From positions 1-64,000 of the forward strand of contig CAWJGT010000007.1 in assembly GCA_963842525.1 (NCBI GenBank): a stretch of 64,000 bases of DNA. The letters run 5' to 3'. The stretch comes from an uncultured Holophagales bacterium. Lineage in GTDB: Bacteria; Acidobacteriota; Thermoanaerobaculia; Multivoradales; UBA5704. Under the pieces are notes generated by a model, which worked only from the letters and a program-made list of their open reading frames with translations, was not told the origin of the DNA and did no database searches. Position 1 is the stretch's first letter; each line of letters begins with the position of its first letter. This document shows, one piece after another, positions 16,555-64,000 of this stretch. A program made the position numbers and the translations under genes.

Positions 16555-16562
16555 GGCTCGCG

Positions 16563-32771: not shown

Positions 32772-32825
32772 CGATTCCCTCCTTTCTGGCGGCCCGGCCT
32801 GGGACATAGAGCATAGAATCGCCCC

Positions 32826-36171: not shown

Positions 36172-36188
36172 CTAACGAGACTGAGCGG

Positions 36189-36338: not shown

Positions 36339-36361
36339 CATGCCGCGCGTGGCACTGCCAG

Positions 36362-36520: not shown

Positions 36521-36657
36521 GCGGTAGCCTGCTACGCTCGACGGCCGAAGTCAAACGAGGCCTTGACATCGCCATGCACGTCGTACAGACTATGCGCACT
36601 CCGTCGCCACTTCCGGCGCTGGATGTCCGAGCCCTCGGGCTCAAGAAGGAGAAGGAA

Positions 36658-37016: not shown

Positions 37017-37130
37017 GGAGCGTAGCGGCCACGCTCCCCGTATTCCGCTCCCATCTTCGAACGCTCCCACCGCGCCAGCCCGCGCCACAGCCTCGCAGCA
37101 TCCTCTGCAGATCGATGCAGCTACGCCGTC

Positions 37131-37517
37131 GTAAGCTTATCCGCCGCAGATACCGTTATCCGGGCCAGTGTAAGCTTATCCAGCACAGATAACACTATCC
37201 GCCGCAGATAAGCTTATCCAGCGCGGATACGCTTATCCGGCGTGGATAACACTATCTGCCGCGGATAAGCTTATCCAGGCCAGCGCAAGCTTATCCGGCA
37301 CAGATAACACTATCTGGCGTAGATAAGCTTATCCAGCGCGGATAAGCTTATCCGGCGTGGATAACACTATCTGCCGCGGATAAGCTTATCCAGGCCAGCG
37401 TAAGCTTATCCGGCGCAGATAACACTATCTGGCGTGGATAAGCTTATCTGGCGCAGATACCGTTATCCGGGCCAGTGTAAGCTTATCTGACGTGGATAAC
37501 ATTATCTGGCGCAGATA
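37131..37517. repeat. tandem array of ~20 palindromic 12-mers (GATAAGCTTATC and variants), period 19-20 bp
   Basis: GATAAGCTTATC / GATAACACTATC / GATACCGTTATC cores with 7-9 nt GC-rich linkers; 115-bp higher-order duplication starting at 37207 and 37322. Confidence 0.95.
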
Positions 37518-37597
37518 CGCCGTCATGCCGAGGCGGAATCTGTACACCTTCGCTGGTCTCTCACGCAGGCGATTTAGCGACGGCCAACGGTTGGGAG

Positions 37598-38086
37598 TCA
37601 GGCGCCATCGCGCATGCGCTTCGCCTGCCAGTTTCCGGAACGCGGGGGCCAGTCGACGCGCCAGCCGGAGTTGTTGGACGATGGCGATATCGGGGTGTGA
37701 CCACGAACCAGCCATGAACCCGGGCCAACGGATGAGGAGCGCACGGAAGTGCACCGTTTGGTGGGGCAGCGGATTCACTTCGATCTCGGTCCGTAGAGCC
37801 GATGAATCCATTCAGTGAGGGTGATCAGCTCGTTGTTGGATCGAATCCTCAGAACGGGTGAGTCTCTGCGGAAGTTGACCGAGATGAGGCCTGATGTGCC
37901 TTCGAGTTGGCCAGGCTCCGGAAACGCAAGAGGCCCCCTCTCGTAAAGCTCGCCGTGAACCCGACCGTTCCCGGTCTCTTGGAGGTGCATGCGGAAGTGC
38001 ACTCTGTCCGGTTCCCGCGAATGCTCAGGCCGTTCGTCAAAGGGATATTCATAGTACCCCTCCCAGGTGCCAGTGATCTGAAACAT
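37598..38086 (-). pseudogene. cassette-like hypothetical gene, frameshifted
   Basis: MFQITGTWEGYYEY... breaks near 37800 and continues in another frame; flanked by attC-like remnants. Confidence 0.45.
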
Positions 38087-38102
38087 CGTTGGGTAGATTA
38101 TA

Positions 38103-38168
38103 GACGTACGACGTGGATGCCGTTCGGCGGTGGCGCCAGCCGATCGCTGCAATGGCCGGGTTGGGGGC
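38103..38168 (-). mobile_element. degenerate attC-like site
   Basis: Minus strand CCCCAAC-CCGGC-CATTGCAGCG...CCGCCGAAC-GGCATCCAC-GTCGTAC resembles RYYYAAC-N5-GTTGCAGCGG...CCGCTGAAC-N6-GTTRRRY. Confidence 0.5.
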
Positions 38169-38179
38169 TATGGGCTATC

Positions 38180-39052
38180 CTATGCCCTCTCTTCGTAGTC
38201 GTCCGACACAGAGGCCCGAAATACCTTGAGAATCTCTTTCTCTGTACGATCGCATACGCCCGCTAGTTCACCGCACGAGGCCTCATTGGCAACGCTGAAA
38301 GCAATGTACTCTTTAAGGGTACGCAGGACTTCAAGTGAGACCACAGCCAAGTAGTTCACATGAGGTTGTACGTTGTTGTCTCGAATTTCAAACGTACCGC
38401 CATCAACTTCAAGATAGTGAAACAGGAGATCGGTCCAGCTGCCATGTATCGTATGAGACCCCATCGACTGAATGGCTATATACCCCTCCGGCGGAAGGTC
38501 CAGATCTCGGCAAATAGAGAAGAAGTCATGCAACGGCTTGCTTGAGCGGACTTCGTCCTCGGTCATTCCTGCGAGTTCGATGCACTGAGCTATGGACTTA
38601 AGCATGCGGTCTTCAACTATCCAATCTCGCCCTCCGCGGTCTGTAATTCGGGATTTAACTTGATCGTGAAGCCTCAGGTCCGCACGTAGCCCATCCGCCA
38701 TGTAACGCTTGAAGAGTCCCGGCTCGTTACGCTTCATTAGCCAGCAGGCCTTGATTGCCGACTCACAAATGCACCGAGTAAGAGCGGCAATCACTTCTCC
38801 ATGCTTCCGCTCCGCCGCGAGCTTTACTGCTGCTAAGATCAGGCGGCTGCACCTGTTGATGAGTCCCCGAATCACGGCATACTCAAGCTCCGGGTGTTCG
38901 ATAACACCAGGAGTTCTGGGGCCTATGGTGCTCAAATGAATGGCAAGCAACCCCACATGGCGACACAACTCAAACGTCGGACGAAGCCAGTCTCTATCCG
39001 AAGAGAACCGGTCCCATTCGGAATCTTCAAACCTTGGCGGCTCTGGCAGCAT
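38180..39052 (-). CDS. DUF5677-like (HEPN-related) protein, lower GC
   Basis: LTRCICESAIKACWL and Y...S..IHGSW motifs. Confidence 0.6.
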   Translation of the reverse strand: MLPEPPRFEDSEWDRFSSDRDWLRPTFELCRHVGLLAIHLSTIGPRTPGVIEHPELEYAVIRGLINRCSRLILAAVKLAAERKHGEVIAALTRCICESAIKACWLMKRNEPGLFKRYMADGLRADLRLHDQVKSRITDRGGRDWIVEDRMLKSIAQCIELAGMTEDEVRSSKPLHDFFSICRDLDLPPEGYIAIQSMGSHTIHGSWTDLLFHYLEVDGGTFEIRDNNVQPHVNYLAVVSLEVLRTLKEYIAFSVANEASCGELAGVCDRTEKEILKVFRASVSDDYEERA

Positions 39053-39130
39053 CTGGCTTCCCTTATGGCGCCCAATCCTGACTCACATATTCGCCGACAC
39101 CGTGCCCACAGGCGTATACGGCAGCCGCCC

Positions 39131-39361
39131 TCAGCGCCGCCGCCGCGCCGCCTTGACCGCGGCCCGACCGAGCGCCGCCGGGGTGGCATGGAACGCCGTC
39201 TCCATTCCCTTCCTGGTCGCCGGCGTCTGCATGCGCTCGAGCAGGATCACCTGTTCCCGCCCTAAGCTTTCCACAACCACCACGCTTCCGTGCTGAACCT
39301 TGTCCACAACCTCCTGGGGTTTCCTGGCAAGGTCGGGTTGGGAGATCGTGGTCCGGGTCAT
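39131..39361 (-). pseudogene. chimeric Phd-like antitoxin fragment
   Basis: N-half VVESLGREQVILLE matches VVESSGREQVILLE near 56940-56980; C-half RMQTP..GM..AF.A.PA.LGRAA resembles another antitoxin family. Confidence 0.5.
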
Positions 39362-39555
39362 TGGATTGTCCTCGGACCATAGTCTGGCCGAGCGACGCCA
39401 CCGCCGGGGGGTTCCTCCGGGTAGGGGAAATCCGGCGCGCTTCCAGCGAGGTCCAGGAACTCCTGGCTCCATCTCCGGCCCGCAGGTTCGAGGACGACCC
39501 TCTCGCCTTCGCGCGAGATCAATCCGGCCTTGAACAGCTTCGCTCTCTGTGACAT
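39358..39555 (-). pseudogene. internally deleted VapB (AbrB-type) antitoxin
   Basis: GAGGAG RBS; MSQRAKLFKAG joined directly to LISREGERVVLEP, so the usual SQAVRLPK segment is missing; no toxin follows. Confidence 0.6.
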
Positions 39556-39693
39556 GGCACTCCTCCTCGGCATAAAGTACCAGATTCTGGAGTCCTCGAC
39601 CCCGTTTCCCGGTTGAGCGCCCATGCTATGATCCTGAGCCGTGTAGCAGGCTATGAAGCTGACTTCATGTTTCTCTCGATAGAGTCGATTCCC

Positions 39694-39940
39694 ATGCCGA
39701 AGATCATCGGTGTCACCGACCTTCAGCGACGGTTCAAGGCGGTGCTCCACGAGGTGGCCGAGGAGCATGTTTCGTACGTTTTGATCCGGGGAAGCCAGCC
39801 GCGGGCGGCCCTGATTCCCTACGAGGAGTTCCTCCGGTATCAGGAGCTCACGGAAGGCGATGTCCTCCGGCGCTTCGGGCGCCTTCGTGCGCGGATGGCC
39901 GAAGCCAGCGCGAGCCTCAGTGAGGACGAAGTGGCTGCTG
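39694..39940 (+). pseudogene. Phd/YefM antitoxin, 3' end lost, no toxin partner
   Basis: IIGVTDLQRRFKAVLHEV...PRAALIPYEEF; the ORF then runs into non-coding-looking DNA. Confidence 0.65.
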
Positions 39941-40008
39941 GGCGGCGGCACGGGTGGAGCTGGAAGCTTGATCCGAGCTGTCGCTCGATACCTCGATCGG
40001 GGTACTTG

Positions 40009-40050
40009 TTACCCAATTCTTTTACCCAATTCCACCGTTGTTACCCAATT
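40009..40050. repeat. three direct repeats of TTACCCAATT
   Basis: Exact copies at 40009, 40022 and 40041. Confidence 0.85.
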
Positions 40051-40206
40051 GCGGCTGCTGGCGCCCTCTTCACGCACCTCTCTGGGAGCAGCGAGACCGG
40101 AAAAGGCCCTCTGCAAGAGATCCGGTCGCCTGATCTGCGCAAAGTTGTTCAGGACCGTCGTGTCGGCGGCGTTCAACCCGGGGAGGTAGGGTAGGCTTGT
40201 CCGCGC

Positions 40207-41916
40207 TTGATCCCACGCTCCGACCCATCCGCCCCGGCGTCCGCGCCGGATTCTGTGGCCGCCCCGCAGGCCGCTGTCCGGAGGGCTTGGCCGACCGCGC
40301 TCGTGCTGCTCGGGATCTCCCTCTACATGGTCTGTTTCTGGGTGCTCTGCGACGACCACTGGTGGCACATGCTCACGGGGCGGCTGGTGCTCGAGACCGG
40401 CCGGGTGCCTGCGGTCGATCCGTTCAGCTTCACGTTCCAGGGGGCTCCCTGGACGAACTGGGAGTGGCTTGCGGGGGTGCTGATGTACCTCGCCTGGTCG
40501 GCTGGCGGGGCGCTCGGGCTCACGGTCCTCCGGGCCGTCAGCCTCGGTGGGACGGTCTTTCTGGTCGTGCACCACTGGCGGCGGCGGGGAGGAGCTTTTC
40601 TGGGGGCGGGAGGCCGTGAGCTGGCGGCGCTGTTGGCTGGGTCCGCGCTGCTCCTCGTGGCCCAGGTGCGCACCGCCGACCGGCCGCACAGCTATGCGTT
40701 TCTGCTCCTGGCTGGCGCCCATGCTCTGGCCACCCGCCTGCGGGAACGATGGTCGGCCGGAGCCGCAGCCGGGCTCGTGGCGCTCTTCATCGTCTGGGTC
40801 AACTTCCACCCGTCGTGGATGTTGGGGATGGGCCTTTGCGGCGCGGTCTTTGCCGATGCCATATTGGCGGACCGGACAATCCGAAAGCGTCTTTTCGGGC
40901 TCGGCGCGGCGATGGCGGCTTCGGTGCTGCTGACGCCCAATCTCAGTCGCTTCTTCGGATCGGTCTCCGAGATTTTCGGCGACAAGGTCTCGGCGGAGTG
41001 GGACCCGGTCTGGAAATTCTTCTCGCTCACGCATGTACCGCTGATGGTTTTCCTGCTGATTGCGCTGGCCTGGGTCGTGAGCGTCGCCCGGAGCCTCCGT
41101 CCCGCAAAAGAGGTCTGCCAGCAACTCGTGCTGGCCGTTCTCCTGGTCCTCGCGTTCCGTCACGCCATGATGACGCCGGTGTTCGCCATCGCCGCCATTC
41201 CCTATCTTCGCTTCGATCTGTTGGGCTGGGGAGCCGTGGCGCGCCGGCTCACGCCGCGGACGGAGAGACTGGTGGCTCTCCTGCTGGCCGCCACCGTCCT
41301 CGCCCTGGCCCAGCGCGACATGCTCGGCCCTCTCGGGGTCGGCGTCGATCCGCGCACCAACCCGGTCGCGCAGACTGATTTTCTGAAAAGCCACGGCCTC
41401 GGCGGCCGGGTCTACTGCACGTCGAAGGAGGCCCACGGCTACGTGGCGTTCCGCCTCTGGCCGGCCGTGACCATTTACATCGACGGCCGGGTGCCGCAGG
41501 TCTTCCCGGCCTCCTTCCTGGAGAGGTATGCGCGGACGGGCGATCCGCAGGTGCTCGGCGCCGACATCGACCGCTACGGGATCGATCACGTCGTCATGCC
41601 GTCGGGCCTGTTCGCGCCGATCAATGTCCAGGTCTCGGACATCCTGCGCGCCCGGGGCGATTTCGCCCTGGTCTGGTTCGACGAGAACGGGGCCCTGTGG
41701 AGCAGGCGCCGTAACGTCGGCTGGCCCTGCCCGGATTGCCAGCCCTTCGAGGCTCTGGACCCCTATCTCCTCGCGCGGCCCGCACGGGAGAAGCTGCGGG
41801 ATTCGCCGGCGCTGCGCGGCGAGCTCGCCCGTCTGGAAGAGATCGGTGCCCGCAGTAAGCTCGCCCGCGATCTGGCGCAGGCTGTGCGGCAGGAAGCCGG
41901 AATCGGAGCTCCCTGA
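40207..41916 (+). CDS. polytopic membrane protein, GT-C-like glycosyltransferase candidate
   Basis: D.WWH..TGR.V....VP.VDPFSFT, W..WEWL, WVNFH, AEW.P, YIDGR motifs; about ten TM segments. Confidence 0.65.
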   Translation: MIPRSDPSAPASAPDSVAAPQAAVRRAWPTALVLLGISLYMVCFWVLCDDHWWHMLTGRLVLETGRVPAVDPFSFTFQGAPWTNWEWLAGVLMYLAWSAGGALGLTVLRAVSLGGTVFLVVHHWRRRGGAFLGAGGRELAALLAGSALLLVAQVRTADRPHSYAFLLLAGAHALATRLRERWSAGAAAGLVALFIVWVNFHPSWMLGMGLCGAVFADAILADRTIRKRLFGLGAAMAASVLLTPNLSRFFGSVSEIFGDKVSAEWDPVWKFFSLTHVPLMVFLLIALAWVVSVARSLRPAKEVCQQLVLAVLLVLAFRHAMMTPVFAIAAIPYLRFDLLGWGAVARRLTPRTERLVALLLAATVLALAQRDMLGPLGVGVDPRTNPVAQTDFLKSHGLGGRVYCTSKEAHGYVAFRLWPAVTIYIDGRVPQVFPASFLERYARTGDPQVLGADIDRYGIDHVVMPSGLFAPINVQVSDILRARGDFALVWFDENGALWSRRRNVGWPCPDCQPFEALDPYLLARPAREKLRDSPALRGELARLEEIGARSKLARDLAQAVRQEAGIGAP

Positions 41917-44075: not shown

Positions 44076-44617
44076 ACACGGAGCGGATCCGCCGTTTCAT
44101 GAAGACCTTGGGAGGCGAGGCGGACCGGGACGTCCGTCTCTATTTCACAGGAGGAGCCACGGCGGTCCTCCTAGGCTGGCGGCCGAGCACGATAGACGTG
44201 GACATCAAGATGGATCCTGAAGCCGACCGGCTTTTCCGGGCTCTTCCCCAGATCAAGGACCGGCTGGAGATCAATATCGAGCTGGCGGCTCCCGATCAGT
44301 TCATCCCCGAGGTCCCAGGCTGGAAGGAGCGCAGCGCGTTCATCGCAAGGGAAGGTCGGTTGTCCTTCTACCACTACGATTTCTATGCCCAAGCCCTGGC
44401 CAAGATCCAGCGTGGCCATGTCCAGGATCGCGTCGACGTCAGGGAAATGATCAGCCGCGGGTTGGTCGAGCCTGACGAGCTACGCAGGCGCTTCGAACAG
44501 ATCGAGCCGGAGCTCTATCGGTATCCGGCGATCGACCCCCCTGCTTTTCGCCAGGCTCTGGACGCAGCACTTTCAGAGTGGGACCTCGACGGCCCGTCTT
44601 ACCGCACCAACTCGTAG
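44060..44617 (+). CDS. DUF6036-like nucleotidyltransferase
   Basis: YFTGGATAV...R.STIDVD, ALAKIQRG...D..D. Confidence 0.75.
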   Translation: MRRPVDTERIRRFMKTLGGEADRDVRLYFTGGATAVLLGWRPSTIDVDIKMDPEADRLFRALPQIKDRLEINIELAAPDQFIPEVPGWKERSAFIAREGRLSFYHYDFYAQALAKIQRGHVQDRVDVREMISRGLVEPDELRRRFEQIEPELYRYPAIDPPAFRQALDAALSEWDLDGPSYRTNS

Positions 44618-44673
44618 AGCTCGTATCCATCCAGAATCTGGCGCTGCTGGACCGCGATCCGCGCCGGCCTCCC

Positions 44674-45314
44674 TCAGTGCGCCCGCTCCTCCTGCACCTG
44701 GCGCATTTGGGCGACGACCTCCTGGCCGCTGGAAAACAGGGTCGAAAGCTCGTTCCGGGCTTCGCCAGGGCCCGCCGGTCCGTCTCGGTCGTGAAGGTCC
44801 CTCGCGAGGTCAGTGCGTAGAACCGCACCCGGTCCTGAGCCGGGAGGGGGTGGGTGTTCGTCTTGGTCATGCGAGGGAGGGCTTTCTGGGTCAAGGCGAT
44901 GAGGTCCTTGGAGGCCTTGCGGATGCTCTCGTGGGACACTCCGCCGACCATGCCGCCGCCCGTTTTGTAGTAGACGCGGGCGTCGCCATCGGCGAAGCAG
45001 GCCAGCGTCACGACCGAATTCGGCATTCCCAGCTCCATCAGGAGACCGTAGGGCTCGTCCTCCTTGAAATCGCCGGGCAGGCCGAGCGTCTGCGGATTGG
45101 TCTCGAGCGCCTTGCGGCGCAGGTTCATGTAGATCGTTTCGGGCGGCTCTTCGACCTTCGCCACCTTCTGGACGACGGCGGCGCGCCCGCCCGGCCCCCC
45201 TTTGCCGGCTCCCGGGGAGCCGCCGGCCGCCTCGGCCTTCCTTTTCCGGACGTACCAGAGGACCGCGATGAGGACGATGACGCCGATGACCTGATAAGGA
45301 TGAATGTGCCGCAT
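44674..45314 (-). CDS. membrane-anchored hypothetical protein, frameshift near 44750
   Basis: N-terminal TM; TLACFADGDARVYYKTGGGMVG; alternate frame ends NELSTLFSSGQEVVAQMR. Confidence 0.6.
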
Positions 45315-45463
45315 GTGCTCTCTAGTGTGCTCTCGATAAAGGGGCCGCGCTCCGCACCCGCTCCGGATGCGCCGGCGAGGCCAGATGATTTGGTCCCTTC
45401 TAAGATCTTAGCGGAGATCGGGCGCCTGTGCCAGAGTCCTCCGCGTGCTCATCGCTCAGCCTT

Positions 45464-49848: not shown

Positions 49849-49856
49849 CACCCCGA

Positions 49857-49884
49857 GCCGGGGAGGGCTTTTTCCCTCCCCGGC
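49857..49884. terminator. GC-rich hairpin, probable terminator
   Basis: GCCGGGGAGGG-loop-CCCTCCCCGGC right after the stop codon. Confidence 0.55.
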
Positions 49885-49944
49885 CGCCCCTACCCCGGAA
49901 AATTGCCTTGCCTTGGCGGTGCCCCCTCGGACAAACTGCGGGGC

Positions 49945-52255
49945 GTGCGACCGACCGCCTTCGACCTGGAGCGCCACCTCAACCCGGAGCAGGCCGACGC
50001 CGTCACCCACGGCGACGGTCCGCAGCTCGTCCTCGCCGGCGCCGGCTCGGGCAAGACCCGGGTCATCACCTACCGGATCGGCTGGCTGATCGAAGAGCGC
50101 GGGGTCGATCCCGGGCGGATCGTGGCCATGACCTTCACGAACAAGGCGGCGGGCGAGATGCGCGAGCGGGTCGAGGACCTGCTCGGCATGCACCCGCTGC
50201 CGGCCTCGGTGGGGACGTTCCACCGCTATGGCCTGATCCTGCTGCGCCGCTATGGCGAACGGGTCGGGCTGCGGCGCGACTTCGCGATCCTTGACACGTC
50301 CGACCAGCTTGGCCTGGTCAAGGAGGCGCTCGGCGCCGAAGGGCTCTCCGAGACCGCCTTTTCGCCGCGTGCCGTGCTGCACCAGATCTCCGCGGCCAAG
50401 AACAAGCTCATCGAGGCCGCCGCCTACGAAGCCGCGGCGACCAACTTTTTCGAGAAGAAGGTGGCTGTCCTCTACCGCCGCTACCAGGGGCTGCTGGCCC
50501 AGGCCTCCGGGGTGGACTTCGACGACCTGCTCGCGCTCTCGGTCAAGCTCCTTTCGACCGATCCGGAGATGCGCGAGCGGGTGCGCTCGCGCACCCAATA
50601 CCTGCTGGTCGACGAGTACCAGGACACCAACCACGCCCAGCTCCGGCTCATCCAGGAGCTGATCGGCCCGGCCGGCAACCTGACCGCCGTGGGCGACGAG
50701 GACCAGGGGATCTACCGCTGGCGCGGCGCCGACCTGGACAACATCCTCCAGTTCGAGGCCAGCTTCCCCGGCGCGGTGGTGCGCAAACTGGAACGCAACT
50801 ACCGCTCGACGCAGACCATCCTCGACGTCTCGGGCGCGCTGATCGCCCACAACGTCAACCGTCGCGGCAAGCGCCTGTGGACCGAGAACGGCGCCGGCGT
50901 CAAGGCGGAGCTGTTCAAGGCGAGCGACGAGGGGGACGAGGCGGGATTCGTCGCCGACACCCTCCAGGCGCTGCGCCAGCGCATGAAGCTGGGCGAGCTC
51001 GGCGTCCTGGTCCGTACCAACGCCCAGACGCGGGCGATCGAGGACGAGCTGCTCAGGCGCGAGATTCCCTACTCCCTGGTCGGTGGCGTCCGCTTCTACG
51101 ACCGGTCCGAGATCAAGGACCTGGTGGCCTACCTGCGCACGTTGCGCAACCCGCGCGATAATTTCTCGCTTTTACGGGTGATCAACCAGCCGCCGCGGGG
51201 GATCGGCAAGTCGACCCTGGAGCTGCTGCGCGACCGGGCGGTCGAGCTCGGCCAGCCGCTCTGGGACGTCATCTACCTGGACGACCTCGGCACTCTGCCG
51301 CAGCGCAGCGCCACGGCCCTGCGCAAGTTCCGCGACCTGATCGTTGGCCTGCAGAAGGCCTCTGAGGAGCTGCCGCTCCCCGCCCTGCTCGACCGCCTGC
51401 TCGCCGACACCGGCTTCACGGAGCTCTTCCGCAAGGACGATCCGGACGACCTGGCGCGCATCGAGAACATCCGCGAGTTCCTCTCCGCGGCCCAGGCCTT
51501 CACCGAGTTCGAACAGCTACAACAGCAGCGACCCGGACCTGCTGACGGCCTTCCTCGACCACGTGGCCCTGGTGACCGACCTCGACTCGCTCCAGGAGGA
51601 GAAGGGGGTCTCCCTGATGACCCTCCACAGCGCCAAGGGGCTGGAGTTCCGGGCGGCGATCGTCGCCGGCCTGGAGCATGGTCTCCTGCCGCACTTCAAC
51701 GCCCAGGGGGCAGCGGAGGACATCGAAGAAGAGCGGCGCCTGCTCTACGTCGGCATGACCCGGGCGCGGGAGAAGCTCTACCTGACCTGCTGCCGGCGCC
51801 GCCGCATCGCCGGCCGCTACCAGGACCAGGCCGAATCGCCGTTCCTCAACGAGCTGCCCGACCACCTCCTCGAGGTCCGCCACAGCCCGGACCTCTACGG
51901 CACGGAGCGCTATGACGAGCGGGCCCGGGGCGTCTATGACTTCTTCGGCCAGGGGCGGCCCACGGCCCCGGCCGCCTCCTACCAGCGCCAGCCGTCCTTC
52001 TCGCCAGGAGTGGCGCCGCGCCCGCAGGCCCCTCCGTCTTCGTTCGGCGGCCGGCAGGTGATCCCCGAGCCGCAGGAGGTGGTCGCCCCCCGCCGGCCGA
52101 TCAAGCGCGGCAGCCGAGTCCGCCACCCCACCCTGGGCAACGGCGTCGTCCTCGAATTTGAAGGCCAGGGCGAGGACGCCCGCCTCACCGTGTTTTTCGA
52201 GAAGGCGGGGAAGAGGAAGCTGGTGGCGAAGTTTGCGAATCTGGAGATGTTGTAG
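49945..52255 (+). CDS. pcrA: UvrD/PcrA ATP-dependent DNA helicase; 1-bp frameshift near 51510
   Basis: AGAGSGKT, TFTNKAA, VDEYQD, NYRST; after the shift LMTLHSAKGLEF, EEERRLLYVGMTRA and a Tudor-like tail. Confidence 0.93.
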
Positions 52256-52290: not shown

Positions 52291-54121
52291 TTACCTGGCA
52301 GAAGCAGCCACCCACTCCTTCACACTCTTCTCCAACAAATCGAGCGGCAGTTGCCCATGGCCCAGGATGTGGTCGTGGAAGGCACGGATGTTCGAACCGC
52401 GGCCCCAGCTCTTTCTCGGCATAGCTACGCAGCTCCCGGATCTTCAGCTCGCCGATCTTGTAGACCGGCACCGTGCCCGGCTGCGCGATGATGCGATCGA
52501 CCTCGGTCTCGATGTCGTGCGCGGTCTTGGCGCAGTTGGCCGTGTAATAGTCGATGGCCTGCTGGCGGGTCCACCCCTTGGAATGCACGCCGGTGTCGAC
52601 CACAAGGCGGATCGCCCGCCAGACCTCGTTAGTGAGCTGGCCGAACTTCGAGTAGGGGTCCTTGTAGAGGCCTAGGTCGCTCCCCAGGCTCTCGGCATAG
52701 AGGCCCCACCCTTCTGAAAAGGCGGGATAGACATCCCACTTGCGCCAGTCCGGCAGCTCCCCCAGCTCCTCGACGAGGGCGTACTGGAGGTGGTGCCCGG
52801 GCACGGTCTCGTGCAGGGTGAGCGCCTCCATCCCCCACTTCGGACGCGACTTCAGGTCATAGGTATTGACCAGGAACCAGCCCGGCATACCTCCGGCGAG
52901 CGAGCCGCTGTTGAAATAGGCCGCCGGCGCCGACTTCTCGACCATGGCTCGAACACCATAGGGGAGCCGCGGCAGCCGGCCGAAGAGCTTGATGAGCTCC
53001 GGATCGATCCTCTTCGCGATGTCGCGGTAGCCGGCGACCAGGTCCTCCGGCTTGTCGTAGAAGAAGCGCGGGTCGGTGCGCAGAAAGTGGGAGAACTCCG
53101 CGAAGCTCCCTTTGAAACCGATCGAGACGATGAGCGCGTCCATCTCCTGGCGGATGCGTTTCACCTCGGCGAGGCCGAGCTGGTGGATCTGCTCGGGCGT
53201 CAGATCGGTGGTCGTATGATTCCGCAGCGCATAGGCATACCAGGCCTTGCCGTCCGGCAGGTCGCTCATGGCGATCGACTCGCGGGCGCCCGGGACATAG
53301 GTGTTCGCGAGGAAATCGTGGTACCTGCGCAGGGCCGGCTCCACTTGCTCGGTGAAGAGCCGGAGGGCCTCGCGCCGGAGCCGTTCCCGGTCTGCCGCGG
53401 GAATCGTCTCGGGGATTTTCTGGAACGGCTTCAGGATCGGGCTTTGCCAGGGATCTTTTTGAGGATCCGCGGGGAGCAGCCTCCCGATCCGGTCGGGCAC
53501 GCCGCGCAGAGTCACCCGCGGCGGTGTGATCCCGGCCTCGAGCCCCTTGCGGAGCTGCGCAAGGGTCTGGTCCGTCCACTCGGCGTAACCTTGTAGGCCC
53601 GCCAGCAGGATCTCGTAGTCGTGGAGGGTGTACAGGTCCGACGAGGACTCCGCCGAGCCGGAGCCCATTGTGCTGATCAACAGGTACTCGCTGCGGAAAG
53701 GCTCCAACTCATGGAAGCGTTCCCCCTCGATCCGCATCTCCAGGCGGCGGCGGGCCAGATCGTAATGGACCTGCTCGGCCGGCGTGAGCCGCGAGCGGTC
53801 GATGGAGGAGAGGGCCGCCATCTCCAGCCGGGTGATGCGGCGGATGAGCGCAATCGTCTCCGGCGAGAGGTCGGCCCAGCGGTCTTCGTACCCCGGAACG
53901 CCCACGGCGGCGGCGAGATCGGGAAACGACTGCAGCCGGGCGGCCCAATAGAGCTCGAAGAACCGCTTCAGCCGCGCGCTCTCGCTCTCCTGTCCCCGGG
54001 TGGCCGCGAGCTGTTCGATCTGCCGCGCCGACTCGATGAGCTCCGGCGGCGTGGCGGCAGAGACCGGGGCTGTGGAAGCGAGCAGGAGGATCGCCAGGGT
54101 GAGGGTCGTCTTCTTCTTCAT
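52291..54121 (-). CDS. DUF885 family exported protein; 1-bp frameshift near 52391
   Basis: LTPEQIHQLGL.EV, HETVPGHHLQ, EGWGLYAE, RLVVDTGVH; alternate frame ends DIRAFHDHIL..GQLPLDLLE. Confidence 0.9.
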
Positions 54122-54235
54122 CGCATACCTCCGACGGCCCGGGATCTTACAGCCTGGTCAGCAGACCAACTCACACTGAGCCAGCGTCAGCTCCGCAAAA
54201 CCAGTGTCAGCTCACGCTGGTCCAGCGTCCCCCAC

Positions 54236-54480
54236 CCGGCCCAACGGGCCGGGAGAACGGAGCCCGGGGCTGAGGCCGAAGGCCGATGCCCTGGGCAGAG
54301 AGGCGATCAACCCCCGCGGCCTGAAAGGCCCGCGAGGGCTTCTGCCGGAGCCGGCTCAGCTCTCGGTTCAACCCAGAGGTCTCGCGGCCTTTCAGGCCGC
54401 ATCACCGTGGGGCCTGTTGACCCAGGGTATCGGCCTTCGGCCTCAACCCTGGGCTGGATTCTCCCGGCCCGTTGGGCCGG
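54236..54480. repeat. REPIN/BIME-like nested inverted repeats
   Basis: CCGGCCCAACGGGCCGGGAGA/TCTCCCGGCCCGTTGGGCCGG, GGCCGAAGGCCGAT/ATCGGCCTTCGGCC, CGGCCTGAAAGGCC/GGCCTTTCAGGCCG. Confidence 0.88.
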
Positions 54481-54575
54481 CTTGGCTGCCATGGGGCTGC
54501 GATTCATCGCCGACTTTCCCAGAGGCTCCCATACTTTTCCGTACGCGCTATGCTCTCGCGCCGAGGGGCGCGACG

Positions 54576-54740
54576 ATGTCTACTGCGACGAGCCAACGTG
54601 ACGAACATATCGACCTGAAAGTCTCCCAGGATCTCACCGAGCACGAGTCCCTGACGTTGACCCGTCGTGATTGGGAAGCATTCCTGGCAGCCCTGGACGA
54701 CGCTGACCGGCCGCGCCCGCGGCTCGCGGCGGCCGTGCGC
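54576..54740 (+). pseudogene. internally deleted DUF1778 antitoxin
   Basis: RDEHIDLKVS fused to L.EHESLTLTRRDWEAFLAALD...P.PRL; no GNAT toxin nearby. Confidence 0.6.
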
Positions 54741-54788
54741 CGACTGAGGAGCCGCCTCATCCATCCGGTCCCGGCTGGTCCTGTTGGG

Positions 54789-55352
54789 TCACCGTCCAGG
54801 AAACCGCCGCCGGAGCGCCGTGACGAAGGCCCGGTCGGCCCGGTGTGAGACCAGCTCGAGAGGGGACCGGCCGCGCTTCCAGGCGAGCCAGAAGGCCAGG
54901 GCGAGCAAGACCAGGCTCAGGACGATATTGGGCCAGGCATTCAGCTCCCACTGGCTGCTCCAAGCCCATTGGGCGCGGCTGGAAAACGGGAGGAGATAAG
55001 GGATCGGCCACGGTGAGCCATCCGGCCCGCGCGAGCCTGCCAGGTCGCCCAGAAGGTGGAGGTGGAAGGTGACAAGACAGAGGGCTGCGGTGAGCCCCCG
55101 GCGGCGCCCCAGCGCAAACCCCGCGACGGCAGCGAGCAGGCCGGCGCCCAGGTTGTGCAGCAGCACATGATGGAAGCGGGAGAACCAGAGAAGCGGCTCC
55201 GCCCATCCTCTCGTGGCAATCTCCGCCGCGAAGCCGAGTCCATCCAGATCGGGCGCCACGCCGGCGAGAGTCACCAGAGCCCGGTCGCGCCGATCGAGCT
55301 GAGCGGCTTCGGCGACCGTCCATGACACCAGAAGATGCGTTATCGGATTCAC
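54789..55352 (-). CDS. membrane-bound metal-dependent hydrolase (YdjM-like)
   Basis: NPITH, APDLD, HH.LLHN, HLHLLGDL. Confidence 0.8.
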   Translation of the reverse strand: MNPITHLLVSWTVAEAAQLDRRDRALVTLAGVAPDLDGLGFAAEIATRGWAEPLLWFSRFHHVLLHNLGAGLLAAVAGFALGRRRGLTAALCLVTFHLHLLGDLAGSRGPDGSPWPIPYLLPFSSRAQWAWSSQWELNAWPNIVLSLVLLALAFWLAWKRGRSPLELVSHRADRAFVTALRRRFPGR

Positions 55353-55411
55353 AGGGGAACTTGAACGGGAGACTCAATCCTTGGCGGGTAACAAAGCATT
55401 TGTCTTCACCC

Positions 55412-55492
55412 GCAGCAACGCTTCTGGCGGTGAGCGGCGGAACCGCGCTATTGGCAGTTTCCGCCCGCTCGACCTCGACTGTGGTATTACAC
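55412..55492 (-). mobile_element. degenerate attC-like hairpin
   Basis: Minus strand GGTCGAGCGGGCGGAA...TTCCGCCGCTCACC pairs with two unpaired bases at attC-typical positions; outer R boxes are degenerate. Confidence 0.5.
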
Positions 55493-55499
55493 GCTGCCT

Positions 55500-55679
55500 C
55501 TACCGATTATCCATCTGAGTCGTGCATCCCACACAACTAAAAAAGGTATATGTGCAGTTGTGGGTGCACCCGTATGAACAGTAGGCCGACTCTCCTCCTT
55601 GTACCTGGGCCAACTTCCTACCATTGAGAACGGACAGCGTCTCCTTCTGTAAACGCAGCTTCTTGAGCGCTTTCTTCAT
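55500..55679 (-). CDS. 59-aa RiPP (lanthipeptide-like) precursor, absent from the ORF track
   Basis: AAGGAG RBS; MKKALKKLRLQKETLSVLNGRKLAQVQGG-ESAYCSYGCTHNCTYTFFSCVGCTTQMDNR. Confidence 0.8.
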   Translation of the reverse strand: MKKALKKLRLQKETLSVLNGRKLAQVQGGESAYCSYGCTHNCTYTFFSCVGCTTQMDNR

Positions 55680-56170
55680 GGATCAATTCTCCTTGTGAAA
55701 CGTGTAACCTCTGTCTCACAGATTCGCCGTCACCCCGCGCACAGATTTCTGCGACACAACCTTCCGGTTGACTCCGCTGCCGGACGAAAGGTGTCGAGCG
55801 TGCAAGGTGCTTAATCTCTTCATAGAACAAGCTACACCTCTTCCTAATCCGCGTCAAGACTGGCGAGGCGCTTGGATAAGCATTCTGGCTGGCCCTGTGC
55901 CTCGAAAGTCGCAACTACGTCATGCTCGACGAGCGAAGGAAGTCGGCCAGATAGCATCTGACCCTACGTGCGCTTCGTGTTTCAGTCAGACGGGAAATTC
56001 TTGTGCGTCTGAGAAGATAGACCGGGGCTGGCGCAAAGGATCGATCTGCTGCACGAAATCCCGGGCGCGACGAGGGTCAGCCCGCGCCAAGACCAGGAGC
56101 CCGCCTTCGGGCGGTGCCAAGCACTCCTTCGGCAGACTTCCTCTCTCTTGGTCGGCCACTCCCCAGCTCG

Positions 56171-56425
56171 TCATCGATAAACATCGCGACGATGGCCGGC
56201 ACGATAGACTCGCACTGCCCTGGCTTCGTCGAGAATCTCGTAAAGAACACGATAGTCGCCAACGCGTATCCTGTAGTCCCTCTCCGTGCCGGAAAGCTTG
56301 CGGCAGCCGGGCGGCCTCGGCTCATCGGCCAGGGCTCGGATCTTCTCGAGGATGCGATCGAAGGTTTCGGGAGACAGGCGCTTCAGATCCCTCTCGGCCG
56401 GCTTGGCGAGAAGGATCTCATACAT
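56171..56425 (-). CDS. relE: RelE/ParE family toxin
   Basis: PRPPGCRKLSG...YRIRVGDYRVLYEI...GHRRDVYR. Confidence 0.92.
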   Translation of the reverse strand: MYEILLAKPAERDLKRLSPETFDRILEKIRALADEPRPPGCRKLSGTERDYRIRVGDYRVLYEILDEARAVRVYRAGHRRDVYR

Positions 56426-56621
56426 CCTGGGAGCGCTCGGCAAGGAAGTCGTCGAGGCGCCGGAACTCCAGTGGCTTCTGGCGCATCTCCTCCAGGCACT
56501 TCAGCGCCTCCAGGTCTTCAGCTTTCTCAAGCAACTCGCGGTACTCGGCGAGGCTCAGTATCACGGCCACCGGCCTACCATCCCGAAGCACGATCTCGGG
56601 CGAGGTTGAGCTGTTCTCCAT
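56418..56621 (-). CDS. Phd-like antitoxin
   Basis: DGRPVAVILSLAEYRELLE..EDLE; GGAGG RBS; overlaps relE. Confidence 0.85.
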   Translation of the reverse strand: MENSSTSPEIVLRDGRPVAVILSLAEYRELLEKAEDLEALKCLEEMRQKPLEFRRLDDFLAERSQDV

Positions 56622-56667
56622 AGAAACTACCTCCCAAGCGAGTCTACCAGGGTTCTTGGGAGCCCGG

Positions 56668-56983
56668 TCAGTCCACCTTTAGCGCTGCGGCGACCTCGGC
56701 ACGCGCTTCTTCCAGGGTGGCCGGCCCGAAGCGCAGTGGAATGCCAAGCCGGTGGAAGCGCTCCTGCAGCTCGAAGCGCGAGAGGGAGAGGGAGCTCCGC
56801 GGTCTTGCCGAGACTGATCTCATCGTCCAGATAGGACTGCAGGATTCCGATCGCCGGATCATCTGTCTCCTTGTCGCGTTCTCTTGGATCGATGGCGCAC
56901 AAGGCCAGTGCGCGAAGGAGACGAAAATCCAGAGGCTCGAGGAGGATCACCTGTTCTCTCCCGGAGCTTTCCACGACCGCCAC
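56668..56983 (-). pseudogene. 5'-truncated, frameshifted Phd/UPF0175-like antitoxin
   Basis: VVESSGREQVILL...Y...EISLGKTAEL then, in another frame, LSRFELQERFHRLGIPLR.GP. Confidence 0.6.
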
Positions 56984-57170
56984 GCTTCACAGCGGGTCAG
57001 CGATGCGATGTCGAAGGGGCGCTTGACGTCCATACAGACCATGATGCACACTGGAGATCTGTATGTCCATACCCAAATCGCTTGCGATAGGAACGGCATC
57101 TGCTTCGGATGGGAAGACCTATGAAGGCTGAACTGCTTCGGCGCCTCTCCTGGGGTTTTCGGGGTATCGA

Positions 57171-57326
57171 GCCCCTCATGCGTGCCTACATCGGGCAGGG
57201 GCTGCGGAAGGACCTCGCGCTGCTGCCCGGGCATGAATGCCCGGGCTAGAAACAGCGCCGGGTGAACCCGGCTTCAAGCCCCATTCATGGGGCGCTGTTC
57301 ATAGCCCGGTGATTCATCGCCGGGCT
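57171..57326. repeat. cluster of REP-like palindromes
   Basis: GCCCGGGCATGAATGCCCGGGC, GCCCCATTCATGGGGC, AGCCCGGTGATTCATCGCCGGGCT. Confidence 0.75.
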
Positions 57327-57369
57327 TTCCTCCAGCAACAATCACCATCCCGGTTCGGCGCTCCCTGCC

Positions 57370-57690
57370 GCGCGGACCGCGGTCCCTTTCATACGGACCG
57401 CGAAACACGGTCCGGTCTCACGGTCCGTGCCGCAGGGACCGTGCTCCCTGCGACAGCGAGCCTGAGTCCGGTCAGACGGACCATGGTCCGCGCGACACGG
57501 ACCGCGAAACCAGTCGCGTGTCGGCAGGTCATCTGGCAGGACCCACGGTCCGTGTGACGCGTCTCGCGGTCCGTGTGAGGGGGACCGAGAGTCCAGATCG
57601 TGGTTTCGCGGTCCGCATCGCGCGGAGTCTCGGTCCTCGCGCGAGGACCGCCGGCGCTCCCAGGGCGCTGGGGCAAGCGGCGGTCCGCCT
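57370..57690. repeat. degenerate GGWCC array with ~7-bp phasing
   Basis: 17 GGACC/GGTCC sites counted, most spaced by 7, 14, 21, 28 or 42 bp. Confidence 0.75.
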
Positions 57691-57750
57691 CATCCATCCG
57701 GCCCCAGGTTTCCGTATATCCTCAGGGCGGACTTGCCCCGGGAGGTCTCC

Positions 57751-58857
57751 TTGGCCGCACGCATCCAGCTCCGCGCCCTTGTTTTCGTCCTGGCGGCGGC
57801 CCTCGCCCTGTCTCCGGCCGCCGGAGCGCACGAGCTTGGGAAGGTCCAAGTCTATGCCACCTTCCTGGAGGACGGCACCTATCGGGTCGAGCTGGTGGTC
57901 GACGAGGAGCACCTGACTTCGCAGGACGTGGGCGGGCCGGCGGGGGACACCCGATATGGACCGATCCAGGGGTTGACCGGTGAGGTCGACCGGCGGTTCG
58001 GACGCCTGTTCCGCTCTCTCGTGGACGGTGCGACGATCTCTTTCGACGGCCGGCCTGTCGAGCCCGAGGCCGAGATGGTGCCGCCGGACCCCGATGCGGT
58101 GCCGGGCCGGATGACGCTCCGCCTCCACGGGCCGATCCCGGGCGGAGCGCGCGCCTTCACCTGGTCCGAGTCCGTGCCGGTCGGCCCCTATCCGCTGGTC
58201 CCGCAGAACGAGGGGGATGAGAGCGCTGTCTGGCAGTGGCTGGAGGGAGGTGCCGCGAGCCAGCCCTTCTCGCTCGCGGCGGCGGTGATCCCGCTGAGCC
58301 GGACGGAGGTCGTCGTCCAGTATCTGAAGCTCGGCTTCACCCACATCCTGCCGAAGGGGCTGGACCATATCCTCTTCGTGCTCGGTCTCTTCCTTCTTTC
58401 GCGGCGCCTCAAGCCGCTCCTTCTCCAGGTGACCGCCTTCACGATCGCCCACACGGTCACCCTGGCGCTCAGCATCTACGGCGTGGTGACTCTTCCCTCC
58501 TCGATCGTCGAGCCGCTGATCGCCCTGTCGATCGTTTTCGTGGCGGTCGAGAACATCCTCACCTCGGAGCTGCGGCCGTCGCGGATCGCCCTGGTTTTCG
58601 CCTTCGGCCTGCTCCACGGGCTCGGCTTCGCGGGAGTCCTTTCCGAGCTGGGCCTGCCGCGCTCGGAGTTCCTCCCCGCGCTGCTCAGCTTCAACCTGGG
58701 CGTCGAGGCAGGGCAGCTCGCCGTGATCGGCCTCGCCCTGCTGGCGGTCGGGCTCTTCCGCAACCGGATCTGGTACCGCCAGGCGGTCGTCGTCCCCGCC
58801 TCCTGCCTGATCGCGCTGGTGGGGTTGTACTGGTCTGTGCAGCGCGTTTTCTTCTGA
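57751..58857 (+). CDS. HupE/UreJ family membrane protein
   Basis: Signal ending AGAH; LGFTHI...GLDHILF, AFTIAHTVTL, FGLLHGLGFA, FNLGVE.GQL. Confidence 0.9.
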   Translation: MAARIQLRALVFVLAAALALSPAAGAHELGKVQVYATFLEDGTYRVELVVDEEHLTSQDVGGPAGDTRYGPIQGLTGEVDRRFGRLFRSLVDGATISFDGRPVEPEAEMVPPDPDAVPGRMTLRLHGPIPGGARAFTWSESVPVGPYPLVPQNEGDESAVWQWLEGGAASQPFSLAAAVIPLSRTEVVVQYLKLGFTHILPKGLDHILFVLGLFLLSRRLKPLLLQVTAFTIAHTVTLALSIYGVVTLPSSIVEPLIALSIVFVAVENILTSELRPSRIALVFAFGLLHGLGFAGVLSELGLPRSEFLPALLSFNLGVEAGQLAVIGLALLAVGLFRNRIWYRQAVVVPASCLIALVGLYWSVQRVFF

Positions 58858-58863
58858 TCTCCG

Positions 58864-60099
58864 CTACGGCTGCCTTACCTCCAGGCTGTTGCCGCGCCAC
58901 TCGATGCGCCAGAGCGGATCGCCCCCGACGATGGGCAGCGCGCTCTCCGTGCCTCGGAACCGCGCGACGATGCGGTCCGGGAGCTCCTCCACCTCGTCGG
59001 GCGGCGAGGCGCCGACGCCTTTGAAGGGAACGGCACGCAGGGTCGACCATTTGCCGTCCACGGTCACGGAGGTGCTGGTGTGGGCCGGCTTGTTGCTGTT
59101 GCGGGCCACCTTGTGGTGCATCTGGCGCCCGCCGGTGGTGCCGATCAGGACGACGTCATAGTCCTCCCGGAGGGGAACCGTCTGGCCTTTGAAGGTCAGG
59201 AATCGGTCACGGATGGCCGGGACCGCCGAGGCATCGCCTTCCACGACACGGCGCAGCAGTTGCCGGTCGTCGTCCGTCAGGCCCCAGAGCTCCGCTGGGG
59301 TGTCGGATTCATAGGGTGCGGCCTTCTTGGGCTTCTGCGCGCCGCCGGAACGCTCGAGAGACAGGCCGATCATCGTCAGGCTTTTGGTGATGTCCTCGAC
59401 TTCGGAAACCTTCGTGGGCCGGCCGTTCACCCTGACCACGCCCTCGCCGTCCAGGAAAAACGCCGGGCCATCGGGGAGGGGCAGCTCGCGTTGATACCGC
59501 TTGAACTTCCGCGGCAGGTTGAGCGCCCACGCGACGACCACGCCGACGAGAGACTGCCCTCCGGCCACGGCCTGGTTCTGCCGCTCCCCGGCCATCGCGA
59601 CAGCCGCGCCGGATGGATTGAAGCGGGTGTGTGAAGGCACATCGCGGAGCTCCCCTCCGAGCACCGCCTGGCCTCCCGTGATCGGGGAGGGCACGGTAAG
59701 GAGCGCCTGCCAGGCCCAATTGGCGCGCAGGGCGGCGTCGATCAGCTCGAGCGCATCCGCGTCTCCCGCCGCCCGGGCCTGCCGGCGGGCCTCCAGCCAG
59801 GCCGCCTCCTGGCCCGTCGTGTAGAGCAGCGAGCCCAGCTCCATCCCCCAGAGGCCCGTGGCGAGCCACGTCTCCGCCAGCTCCTTGAAGAAGCCGAACC
59901 TTCCATTGGCCGCTTCCCACGTGGGGCGGAAGTTGGCGGAGCCGGGATGATTGACCCATCGCTCGCGGATCGGCGATCCGGGCTGGTCCAGCGCGGGAAT
60001 GTGGAACGGGCCCGGGTCGCGGCCGATGAGCGCATTCAGGAGCGCGGCATCTCCCAGCGTGCGGCCCTCGTTGAATTCTGTTACGACGTTCCTCGCCAC
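58864..60099 (-). CDS. hypothetical protein
   Basis: AGGAGGT RBS before GTG 60099; normal globular composition, no motif recognised. Confidence 0.65.
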   Translation of the reverse strand: MARNVVTEFNEGRTLGDAALLNALIGRDPGPFHIPALDQPGSPIRERWVNHPGSANFRPTWEAANGRFGFFKELAETWLATGLWGMELGSLLYTTGQEAAWLEARRQARAAGDADALELIDAALRANWAWQALLTVPSPITGGQAVLGGELRDVPSHTRFNPSGAAVAMAGERQNQAVAGGQSLVGVVVAWALNLPRKFKRYQRELPLPDGPAFFLDGEGVVRVNGRPTKVSEVEDITKSLTMIGLSLERSGGAQKPKKAAPYESDTPAELWGLTDDDRQLLRRVVEGDASAVPAIRDRFLTFKGQTVPLREDYDVVLIGTTGGRQMHHKVARNSNKPAHTSTSVTVDGKWSTLRAVPFKGVGASPPDEVEELPDRIVARFRGTESALPIVGGDPLWRIEWRGNSLEVRQP

Positions 60100-60277
60100 G
60101 ATCACACCTCCTGGGCCGGGCGGCCCGGAAAAACAGTCGCTCAAGGTGCTAGACGACTATCGTAGATCTTTTCCCTCCGGCCGGCGTATCCAGGTGGCGG
60201 AGCGGGACACCGGACGTGCCGGTCCCGGACCACCTGGCCGATCCCCTGGCCTTCGCGGTCCGGCTGCTCGCGGAGTA

Positions 60278-62787: not shown

Positions 62788-62909
62788 GGTCCCATCTTCC
62801 CATATTTATGGGCGCGAGTCCACCTGGGCACAACACCCCTGCGCCCTTGTCGGATAGGATTGGGGGCCCTGCCGGCTGCGGCAGGACCCAACGATCGAGG
62901 ACCTCTGCA

Positions 62910-64000
62910 ATGCCCGACAGCACCCCCTCCACCCCCGGACGTGACTTCATCCGCGACATGGTCGAGCGCGACCGTGCCGCGGGCAAGTATGGCGGCAGGG
63001 TGGTCACACGTTTTCCGCCGGAGCCGAACGGCTACCTCCATATCGGTCACGCCAAGTCGATCTGCCTCAACTTCGGCCTTGCGCTGGAGAACGGCGGGAC
63101 CTGCAACGTCCGTCTCGACGACACCAACCCCGAGACCGAGGATCAGCAGTACGTCGAGGCGATCCAGCGGTACGTGCGCTGGCTGGGCTTCGACTGGGGG
63201 GAGAATTTCTTCCATGCCTCGGACTACTTCGAGCAGCTCTATGACTTCGCCGTCGAGCTGATCCGGCGGGGCAAGGCCTACGTCGACAGCCTGAACGAGG
63301 ACGAGATCCGCGAGTACCGGGGCACTGTCACCGAGCCCGGCCGGAACAGCCCCTACCGCGACCGCAGCGTCGAGGAGAACCTCGACCTCTTCCGCCGGAT
63401 GCGGGCCGGCGAGTTTCCGGACGGCGCCCACGTGCTGCGCGGCAAGATCGACATGGCCTCGCCCAACATGAAGATGCGGGACCCGCTCTTCTACCGCATC
63501 AAGCACGCCACCCACTTCCACCGCGGCAATGCCTGGTGCATCTACCCGTTCTACGACTTCGCCCATCCGCTCTCGGACGCCATCGAAGGCATCACCCACT
63601 CGCTCTGCACGCTGGAGTTCGAGAACAACCGGGAGATCTACGACTGGCTGGTCGACACCTTGGAATTCCCCGACCCGCCGCGGCAGACCGAGTTCGCCCG
63701 CCTCAACCTCACGTACACGGTGTTGAGCAAGCGCAAGCTCCTGGCGCTCGTCGAGCGCAAGCTCGTGACGGGCTGGGACGATCCGCGGATGCCGACCCTC
63801 GCCGGGCTGCGCCGCCGCGGCTTCACTCCCGAGGCGATCCGCGACCTCTGTGAGCGCGTCGGCGTCGCCAAGGCCAACAGCACGGTGGACGTGACGCTCC
63901 TGGAGCACTGCCAGCGCGAGGACCTCAATCCGCAGGTTCCCCGGGTGATGTGCGTGCTGCGGCCGTTGCGGCTGGTGATCGAAAACTACCCCGAAGGCCA
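62910..64000 (+). CDS. glnS: glutamine--tRNA ligase (5' part, runs off the window)
   Basis: MPDST...[54 protein letters not shown]. Confidence 0.95.

Follow-up and report, generated by a model that had tools for sequence, protein, structure and literature searches.

A stand-alone gene for a putative RiPP precursor with a class I lanthipeptide-type leader in an uncultured Holophagales bacterium

A 64,000-nt stretch of DNA from an uncultured Holophagales bacterium (hereafter the window) carries a gene for a 59-residue peptide that combines a leader of a family labelled class I lanthipeptide with a core rich in cysteine, serine, and threonine, and no maturase was found in the window. Our preferred explanation, which we hold at slightly below an even chance, is that this is a genuine RiPP precursor gene of the LxLxKx5L/Gly-Gly leader family (NF038153, PF28317) whose peptide is matured by enzymes encoded elsewhere. 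Maturation in trans is plausible, and the product is probably a secreted modified peptide. The precursor is a further member of a leader family that has already been modelled, and not a new kind.

The precursor gene

The precursor gene lies on the minus strand at 55500..55679 and, according to the ORF listing and the sequence, has an ATG start and 59 codons followed by a TAG stop; its translation is MKKALKKLRLQKETLSVLNGRKLAQVQGGESAYCSYGCTHNCTYTFFSCVGCTTQMDNR. A Shine-Dalgarno-like AAGGAG, read from the sequence, stands 9 nt upstream of the ATG (55689..55694, minus strand). The leader comprises residues 1–29 (55593..55679, minus strand), contains the motif LxLxKx5L (L8, L10, K12, and L18), and ends in Gly28-Gly29. 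The core (residues 30–59; 55503..55592, minus strand) holds by direct count 5 Cys, 8 Ser/Thr, and two Gly-Cys pairs, G37-C38 and G51-C52, and its spacing includes C-x3-C-x3-C. The original prediction, made from the letters alone, had described a 59-aa minus-strand ORF with an AAGGAG ribosome-binding site, and this ORF is present with the site 9 nt before its ATG; the predicted leader with its GG and the core of 5 Cys and 8 Ser/Thr can likewise be read directly from the sequence.

The low GC content that had been claimed for this ORF was also borne out, at 0.494 versus 0.669 for the window as a whole. Third-position GC (GC3) is 0.63 in the precursor versus 0.84–0.95 in the neighboring core genes (DUF885, HupE, COX1, and GlnS), and the lowest 200-nt GC (0.485) falls at 55500-55699. 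Four other ORFs overlap the gene: a 45-aa and a 98-aa ORF on the minus strand and two on the plus strand. A scan of 55200-56200 for sigma-70-like promoters and intrinsic terminators returned 0 sites, and GC-rich hairpin potential 3' of the precursor stop codon was not above that of shuffled sequences (z -0.85).

Leader family assignment

The leader assignment comes from NF038153 (NCBIfam "lant_leader_L1a", class I lanthipeptide), which matched residues 1–29 at a score of 26.8 bits (curated cutoff 22; E = 4.1e-6 when one protein is compared with 18950 models) and was the sole model above its own cutoff. TIGR04149, which describes a radical-SAM-modified RiPP, scored 19.1 bits on the leader, under its cutoff of 25, and Pfam Bacteriocin_IIc (PF10439) scored 14.9 bits, under its gathering score of 27.1. 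The nearest ESM Atlas clusters carry the name "Class I lanthipeptide leader domain-containing protein" with scores of 0.86–0.87, which serve as a lead only; PF28317 (Lant_leader_dom, Pfam 38.1) is found in 70% and 50% of the members of these clusters, and it is solely through this lead that PF28317 is linked to the precursor. Walker et al. 2020 describe the LxLxKx5L motif for class I LanAs of Bacteroidetes and state that many such leaders end in Gly-Gly, often with a C39 protease in the cluster (PMC7268733).

Thus the precursor shows the leader features of class I systems (NF038153 above its cutoff, the LxLxKx5L motif, and the Gly-Gly end), and in residues 30–59 Ser/Thr residues (8) are no fewer than Cys (5). 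The LanB and LanC that would define the class alongside a precursor are missing from the window, as is a C39 ABC exporter for cleavage at Gly-Gly. For a TIGR04149-type RiPP, the score is under the cutoff and no radical SAM domain is found in the window. These results back the earlier reading of a lanthipeptide-like precursor on the strength of NF038153, the motif, and the Gly-Gly end, but the novelty that this reading implied was overstated: NF038153 and PF28317 already model the leader, and three close relatives from metagenome-assembled genomes (MAGs) are named 'class I lanthipeptide'. The NCBI pipeline would give the precursor the same name if its ORF were called. The leader type is not specific to one enzyme class: TIGR04149 scores 19.1 bits here, and one relative (P0006) passes its cutoff.

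Relatives in protein databases

A phmmer search of 1.84 billion cluster representatives found 17 other proteins at E ≤ 1e-3, of which 15 are peptides of 52–96 aa aligned from residue 1; the other two (P0013, 540 aa, and P0015, 359 aa) were left out as long multi-stretch matches. The 15 peptides have the leader in common, and their cores are unrelated yet Cys/Ser/Thr-rich. A profile built from 57 peptides extended this picture: of 3945 candidates, 1121 proteins reached E ≤ 1e-3, again short peptides in which the leader is kept and the Cys/Ser/Thr cores are hypervariable. Two members of the family, P0087 and P0088, have the same longest contig, of 7,663,956 bases. An NCBI organism name was attached to 8 of the best 120 profile matches (Thermoanaerobaculia 7, Holophagales 1), with three of the eight annotated as 'class I lanthipeptide' and five as 'hypothetical protein'. 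The precursor's relatives point to an acidobacterial branch of the LxLxK/GG leader family, because all five loci found with the leader pattern (see below) and all eight named profile matches are acidobacterial. Literature searches found no description of such an acidobacterial leader subfamily.

In the 57 aligned peptides, L8 and L18 never vary, and conservation is at least 90% at K2, L10, T14, L15, and G28; the precursor keeps all of these positions. When the library relatives were compared with NF038153, 28 of 54 passed the cutoff, 16 scored below it, and 10 were unmatched at E ≤ 0.01. TIGR04149 reached up to 26 bits on the relatives, with P0006 alone passing the cutoff, and another relative (P0014) shows a weak likeness to radical-SAM targets with Cys-Xaa3 repeats (TIGR04117, 21.4 bits versus a cutoff of 50).

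The relatives' cores contain at least 2 Cys in every case (54/54), with medians of 6 Cys and 8 Ser/Thr, and Ser/Thr residues equal or outnumber Cys in 53 of 54, a composition that would fit thioether chemistry. Only P0018 partially resembles the window core, with the framework CSY-x-CT-x-NCT-x-T in common, and the window core is unrelated to any named product. The precursor forms a sequence cluster of 1 member, and identity to the next best relative is 52%. A word-indexed search with the single peptide retrieved nothing beyond the window's own protein, and tblastn against a plasmid collection gave no match at E ≤ 1.

Related acidobacterial loci

A leader pattern derived from a 5-sequence alignment located five further loci (L001–L005) in genomes, all of them in MAGs of Acidobacteriota (three from Thermoanaerobaculia, one from Holophagales, and one from "Acidobacteria bacterium gp7"). 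Each locus has a single peptide gene among ordinary housekeeping neighbors, and no RiPP-maturation or C39 domain was detected by Pfam in their 67 coding-like ORFs and stop-to-stop ORFs of at least 212 aa; the contigs are short, and the flanks covered measure between 100 nt and 10 kb on each side. A stand-alone precursor gene without maturases is therefore seen in 6/6 loci, counting the window, within the available flanks.

The five locus peptides are more divergent: none of them (0/5) matches NF038153 at E ≤ 0.01, and those of L004 and L005 are without Gly-Gly. The peptides of L001, L003, and L004 have a conserved core around TSCTYPCDCPTGC, which several library matches also carry. Pairwise dN/dS among these three peptides is 0.27–0.40, and therefore stand-alone genes with this leader appear to be maintained by selection.

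Two of these loci also show conserved synteny: the TSCTYPCDCPTGC-core peptide gene is divergent to a DUF2277 gene at both L001 (8638-9163) and L004 (9659-10174), at distances of 121 and 72 nt, respectively, with no RiPP enzyme nearby. The two DUF2277 proteins are 81% identical, and DUF2277 is absent from the window. A tblastx comparison of the five loci with the window found glnS, in L004, as the sole neighbor in common, among many weak matches that amount to high-GC noise. Over 371 aa, the GlnS proteins of the window and of L004 ("Holophagales bacterium UBA5704") share 85% identity, and at both sites the peptide gene is 5–7 kb from the glnS start and transcribed away from it (peptide and glnS at 55500-55679 and 62883-63998 in the window, and at 10001-10174 and 2504-4606 in L004). 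The genes in between are unrelated in the two genomes; the proximity to glnS may reflect a variable region upstream of glnS that is common to both, or coincidence.

Genomic surroundings

The precursor gene sits in a low-GC islet of ~1.9 kb (55380..57300, boundaries approximate; GC 0.592 versus 0.669) that also holds a toxin-antitoxin pair. Upstream of the peptide gene, a RelE/ParE-family toxin is encoded at 56171..56443 on the minus strand (Pfam ParE_toxin E 9e-12; TIGR02385 24.5 bits, below cutoff; GC3 = 0.68), and a Phd/YefM-family antitoxin is encoded at 56418..56621, also on the minus strand (TIGR01552 21.8 bits versus a cutoff of 20.8). The next gene downstream, 147 nt from the peptide gene, encodes a YdjM-type membrane-bound metal-dependent hydrolase (54789..55352, minus strand). 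This product had no Pfam or NCBIfam HMM match and was assigned through the ESM Atlas (score 0.98; PF04307 YdjM in 86% of the best cluster); its codon usage is native (GC3 0.78), and the gene is probably outside the precursor system.

A 21-nt direct repeat brackets 2.9 kb that include the peptide gene. Its left copy (54752..54772, plus strand) and right copy (57685..57705, plus strand) are identical at 20/21 positions, and their likeness stops at 21 nt. The significance of this repeat is uncertain, and it may be due to chance, for which a rough estimate is 1 in 100 per 5 kb. No tRNA that could mark an integration site was found in the window, and Rfam gave only sub-threshold chance matches over 53500-58500.

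Two further repeat structures lie nearby. Between the DUF885 and YdjM genes, 54231-54485 holds an inverted repeat with 74-nt arms that are 84% complementary and 107 nt apart. Direct and inverted repeats on GGACCG / CGGTCC occupy 57350-57630, upstream of a HupE/UreJ-family gene, and this repeat cluster had Rfam matches at chance level only.

Maturation enzymes and proposed pathway

None of the window ORFs scanned has a Pfam domain of LanB, LanC, LanM, a radical SAM enzyme, YcaO, a GMC oxidoreductase, or a C39 peptidase. The scan covered 90 coding-like ORFs (at least 90 aa) and all stop-to-stop ORFs of at least 212 aa in six frames. Over these ORFs, the proposed maturation and export enzymes are absent from the 55.5 kb to one side of the precursor and from the 8.3 kb to its other side. 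The earlier statement that the window has no modifying enzyme therefore holds for every ORF of at least 212 aa and for coding-like ORFs of at least 90 aa. Of export systems, the window encodes no more than an HlyD-type adaptor together with a MacB/DarD-like ATPase (3449-5747), which lie 50 kb from the precursor and are without a C39 domain, and neither tblastn nor a motif scan found a second copy of the leader in the 64 kb. Even at E ≤ 1, Pfam found nothing for the products of 58867-60144, 40195-41913, 44454-45407, 17675-18907, and 1565-3040, and only weak sub-threshold P-loop NTPase matches for that of 31458-32843. These larger proteins without a family may include a novel maturase, though none was identified as one.

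The scheme that we infer, from the first enzymatic step to export and any activity of the peptide, would run as follows. The 29-residue leader would dock the peptide onto its maturase, after which a LanB-type dehydratase, named here by family assignment, would convert some of the 8 core Ser/Thr residues into dehydro-residues. A LanC-type cyclase would then add the 5 Cys to dehydro-residues, forming up to five thioether rings, and a C39-peptidase ABC exporter would cleave after Gly28-Gly29 and secrete a product of 30 residues. All of these maturation and export enzymes would be encoded elsewhere than in the window, and the precursor gene itself came in on, or resides in, a small accessory islet of low GC that also carries a toxin-antitoxin pair.

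Orphans are common among predicted precursors: in one survey, 37.6% of 423,831 fell outside antiSMASH regions, many of them co-occurring with clusters elsewhere in the same genome (PMC11953309). Lanthipeptide machinery also exists in the same acidobacterial lineage. The tha cluster, characterized from a MAG of the UBA5704 order, has genes for a LanM, for a C39 peptidase, and for ABC transporter proteins, and its GMC oxidoreductase forms a thiazole at Gly-Cys (PMC13083261). Against the class I reading we counted the missing machinery and the missing second precursor in the window, the same situation at the related loci, whose five peptides also miss NF038153, the lack of class specificity of the leader type, and the different leader type of ThaA, the characterized precursor of the lineage. 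The empty promoter and terminator scan, the hairpin at shuffle level, and the atypical codon usage count against it as well.

Alternative explanations

The same leader type could instead be read by another class of maturase encoded elsewhere, such as a class II LanM, a radical SAM enzyme of the sort that acts on TIGR04149 peptides, or an azole-forming enzyme, be it a YcaO or the thiazole-making GMC oxidoreductase ThaO/TheO, a possibility that we consider unlikely but the strongest competitor. It is favored by the TIGR04149 scores (19.1 bits on the precursor leader and up to 26 bits on relatives), by the weak TIGR04117 likeness of P0014 together with the C-x3-C-x3-C spacing of the window core, and by the two Gly-Cys pairs of that core, given that the UBA5704 lineage has both a LanM and a GMC oxidoreductase reported to form thiazoles at Gly-Cys (PMC13083261). 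LanM, radical SAM, and azole-forming enzymes all stay open as candidates because of that cluster in the same lineage, although the ThaA and TheA leaders are of mersacidin/lichenicidin type according to the authors' description there (PMC13083261) and are unlike the precursor's. Moreover, NF038153 alone passes its own cutoff, and radical SAM, YcaO, LanM, and GMC enzymes are all missing from the window. A less probable alternative again is that the peptide is never modified and is a class II bacteriocin or signal peptide with a double-glycine leader, exported and cleaved by a peptidase-domain ABC transporter with its Cys residues as disulfides. Double-glycine leaders have a consensus of hydrophobic residues at -4, -7, -12, and -15, and read from the sequence the precursor has V26, L23, L18, and L15 at exactly these distances from its Gly-Gly end. 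Stand-alone genes without maturases, the rule in 6/6 loci, would suit such a peptide, as would the weak Bacteriocin_IIc match (14.9 bits), but that score is far under the cutoff of 27.1, the odd number of 5 Cys would leave one unpaired, the C39 transporter is also missing from the window, and 53 of 54 relatives show a richness in Ser/Thr beside Cys of the kind usual for modified cores.

About as doubtful as the unmodified peptide is a stranded relic, in which a precursor that was delivered by a small mobile or accessory islet and cut off from its cluster has lost its expression and processing. The atypical codon usage of the precursor would fit a stranded, decaying gene as well (GC3 0.63 versus 0.84–0.95 for native genes, in an islet with GC 0.59), and the adjoining toxin-antitoxin genes, the 21-nt repeat bracketing 2.9 kb, the missing promoter and terminator consensus, and the lack of a close ortholog (a cluster of 1 member, with the next best relative at 52% identity) all point the same way. 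Yet the ORF is intact with a good ribosome-binding site, the conserved leader positions are all kept, and related stand-alone peptides are under purifying selection, while the repeat may be a product of chance at the rough estimate of ~1 in 100 per 5 kb. Finally, a chance ORF in an intergenic low-GC stretch is nearly excluded. The gene is short, four other ORFs overlap it, and no promoter was found, but the leader HMM match (E = 4.1e-6) stays significant once the few thousand small ORFs of the window are corrected for, 15 independent short peptides align with the product from residue 1, and the ribosome-binding site is at the right distance.

Comparison with known systems

The precursor resembles the class I LanAs of Bacteroidetes in leader motif, Gly-Gly end, length, and Cys/Ser/Thr-rich core, as described by Walker et al. 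(PMC7268733), but it comes from the acidobacterial UBA5704 lineage (Thermoanaerobaculia/Holophagales). The precursors of that set were collected only within seven genes of LanC (PMC7268733), whereas the window precursor has no LanB, LanC, or C39 gene within 55 kb and 8 kb on its two sides. TIGR04149 (GG_sam_targ_CFB), also from Bacteroidetes, models an N-terminal leader that closely resembles the precursor's and likewise ends in Gly-Gly; the precursor scores 19.1 bits on it, below the cutoff of 25, and a radical SAM gene is missing from the window.

A parallel for a precursor apart from its enzymes is provided by the prochlorosins of cyanobacteria (ProcA/ProcM, class II), which are the model for modification in trans and, like the precursor family here, combine a conserved leader with hypervariable cores. 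Many ProcA precursors are encoded far from their synthetase (PMC7268733). The likeness has limits: prochlorosin leaders are of Nif11 type, and no Nif11 model matches the window precursor even at E ≤ 10; prochlorosins are made by a LanM and not by LanB/LanC; and they occur in many copies per genome, compared with one copy in 64 kb here.

Within the same lineage, the tha/the systems (ThaA; ThaM, a LanM; ThaO, a GMC oxidoreductase) have in common with the precursor a Cys-rich core, which in their case undergoes chemistry at Gly-Cys, and their cluster includes a C39 peptidase and an ABC transporter (PMC13083261). There the enzymes are clustered with the precursor, whereas the LanM and GMC enzyme are missing from the window here.

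Wider implications

A broader and, as we see it, rather improbable extension of these observations is that Thermoanaerobaculia and Holophagales maintain a very large repertoire (at least 1121 sequence clusters) of singly encoded, scattered LxLxK...GG peptides with hypervariable Cys/Ser/Thr cores, distant from any maturase, a counterpart of the prochlorosins served by one promiscuous or unrecognized enzyme set, with the window gene as one of its substrates. Such a set would parallel the cyanobacterial prochlorosins within class I or within a class that has so far gone unrecognized. If the precursor and its many acidobacterial relatives are truly matured by distant enzymes, genome mining based on clusters, which considers few genes around LanB, LanC, or LanM, would miss them; Acidobacteria would in that case offer a large and unexploited reservoir of cyclic peptide scaffolds, together with a substrate-tolerant maturase that would be of interest to biotechnology. 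As it stands, the precursor is one more member of a leader family recognized by NCBI and Pfam models; its interest would grow if many scattered copies were served by one distant enzyme set.

Other features of the window

A second low-GC island (35650-40190, GC 0.588) carries a DUF5677 protein, a Phd/YefM-like antitoxin, and, at 37132-37517, an array of ~20 copies of a 19-nt unit with the consensus TAAGCTTATCCGGCGCAGA, which contains the palindrome GATAAGCTTATC. In appearance, the array resembles the iterons or the centromere-like site that a mobile element might carry.

Farther along, the UvrD/PcrA helicase (49849-52255) is split over the overlapping frames 49849-51915 and 51341-52255 with the break inside UvrD_C, which points to a frameshift, a pseudogene, or an error in the assembly. 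Three matches to ABC-3 (Mn/Zn-type permease) were found at 15816-17837, in the ORF 16502-18937, and, as a C-terminal half, at 23458-24240; the ORF 15816-17837 also carries an iron-dependent repressor C-terminal domain. Between these matches (15816-18937 and 23458-24240) sit a CHAT/CHASE2 gene and a repeat-protein gene. The latter is the minus-strand ORF 19105-21174, beside the CHAT/CHASE2 gene, and it contains a tandem repeat at 19184-20250 (174 nt x 6.1 copies, 93% matches) that encodes 58-aa protein repeats.
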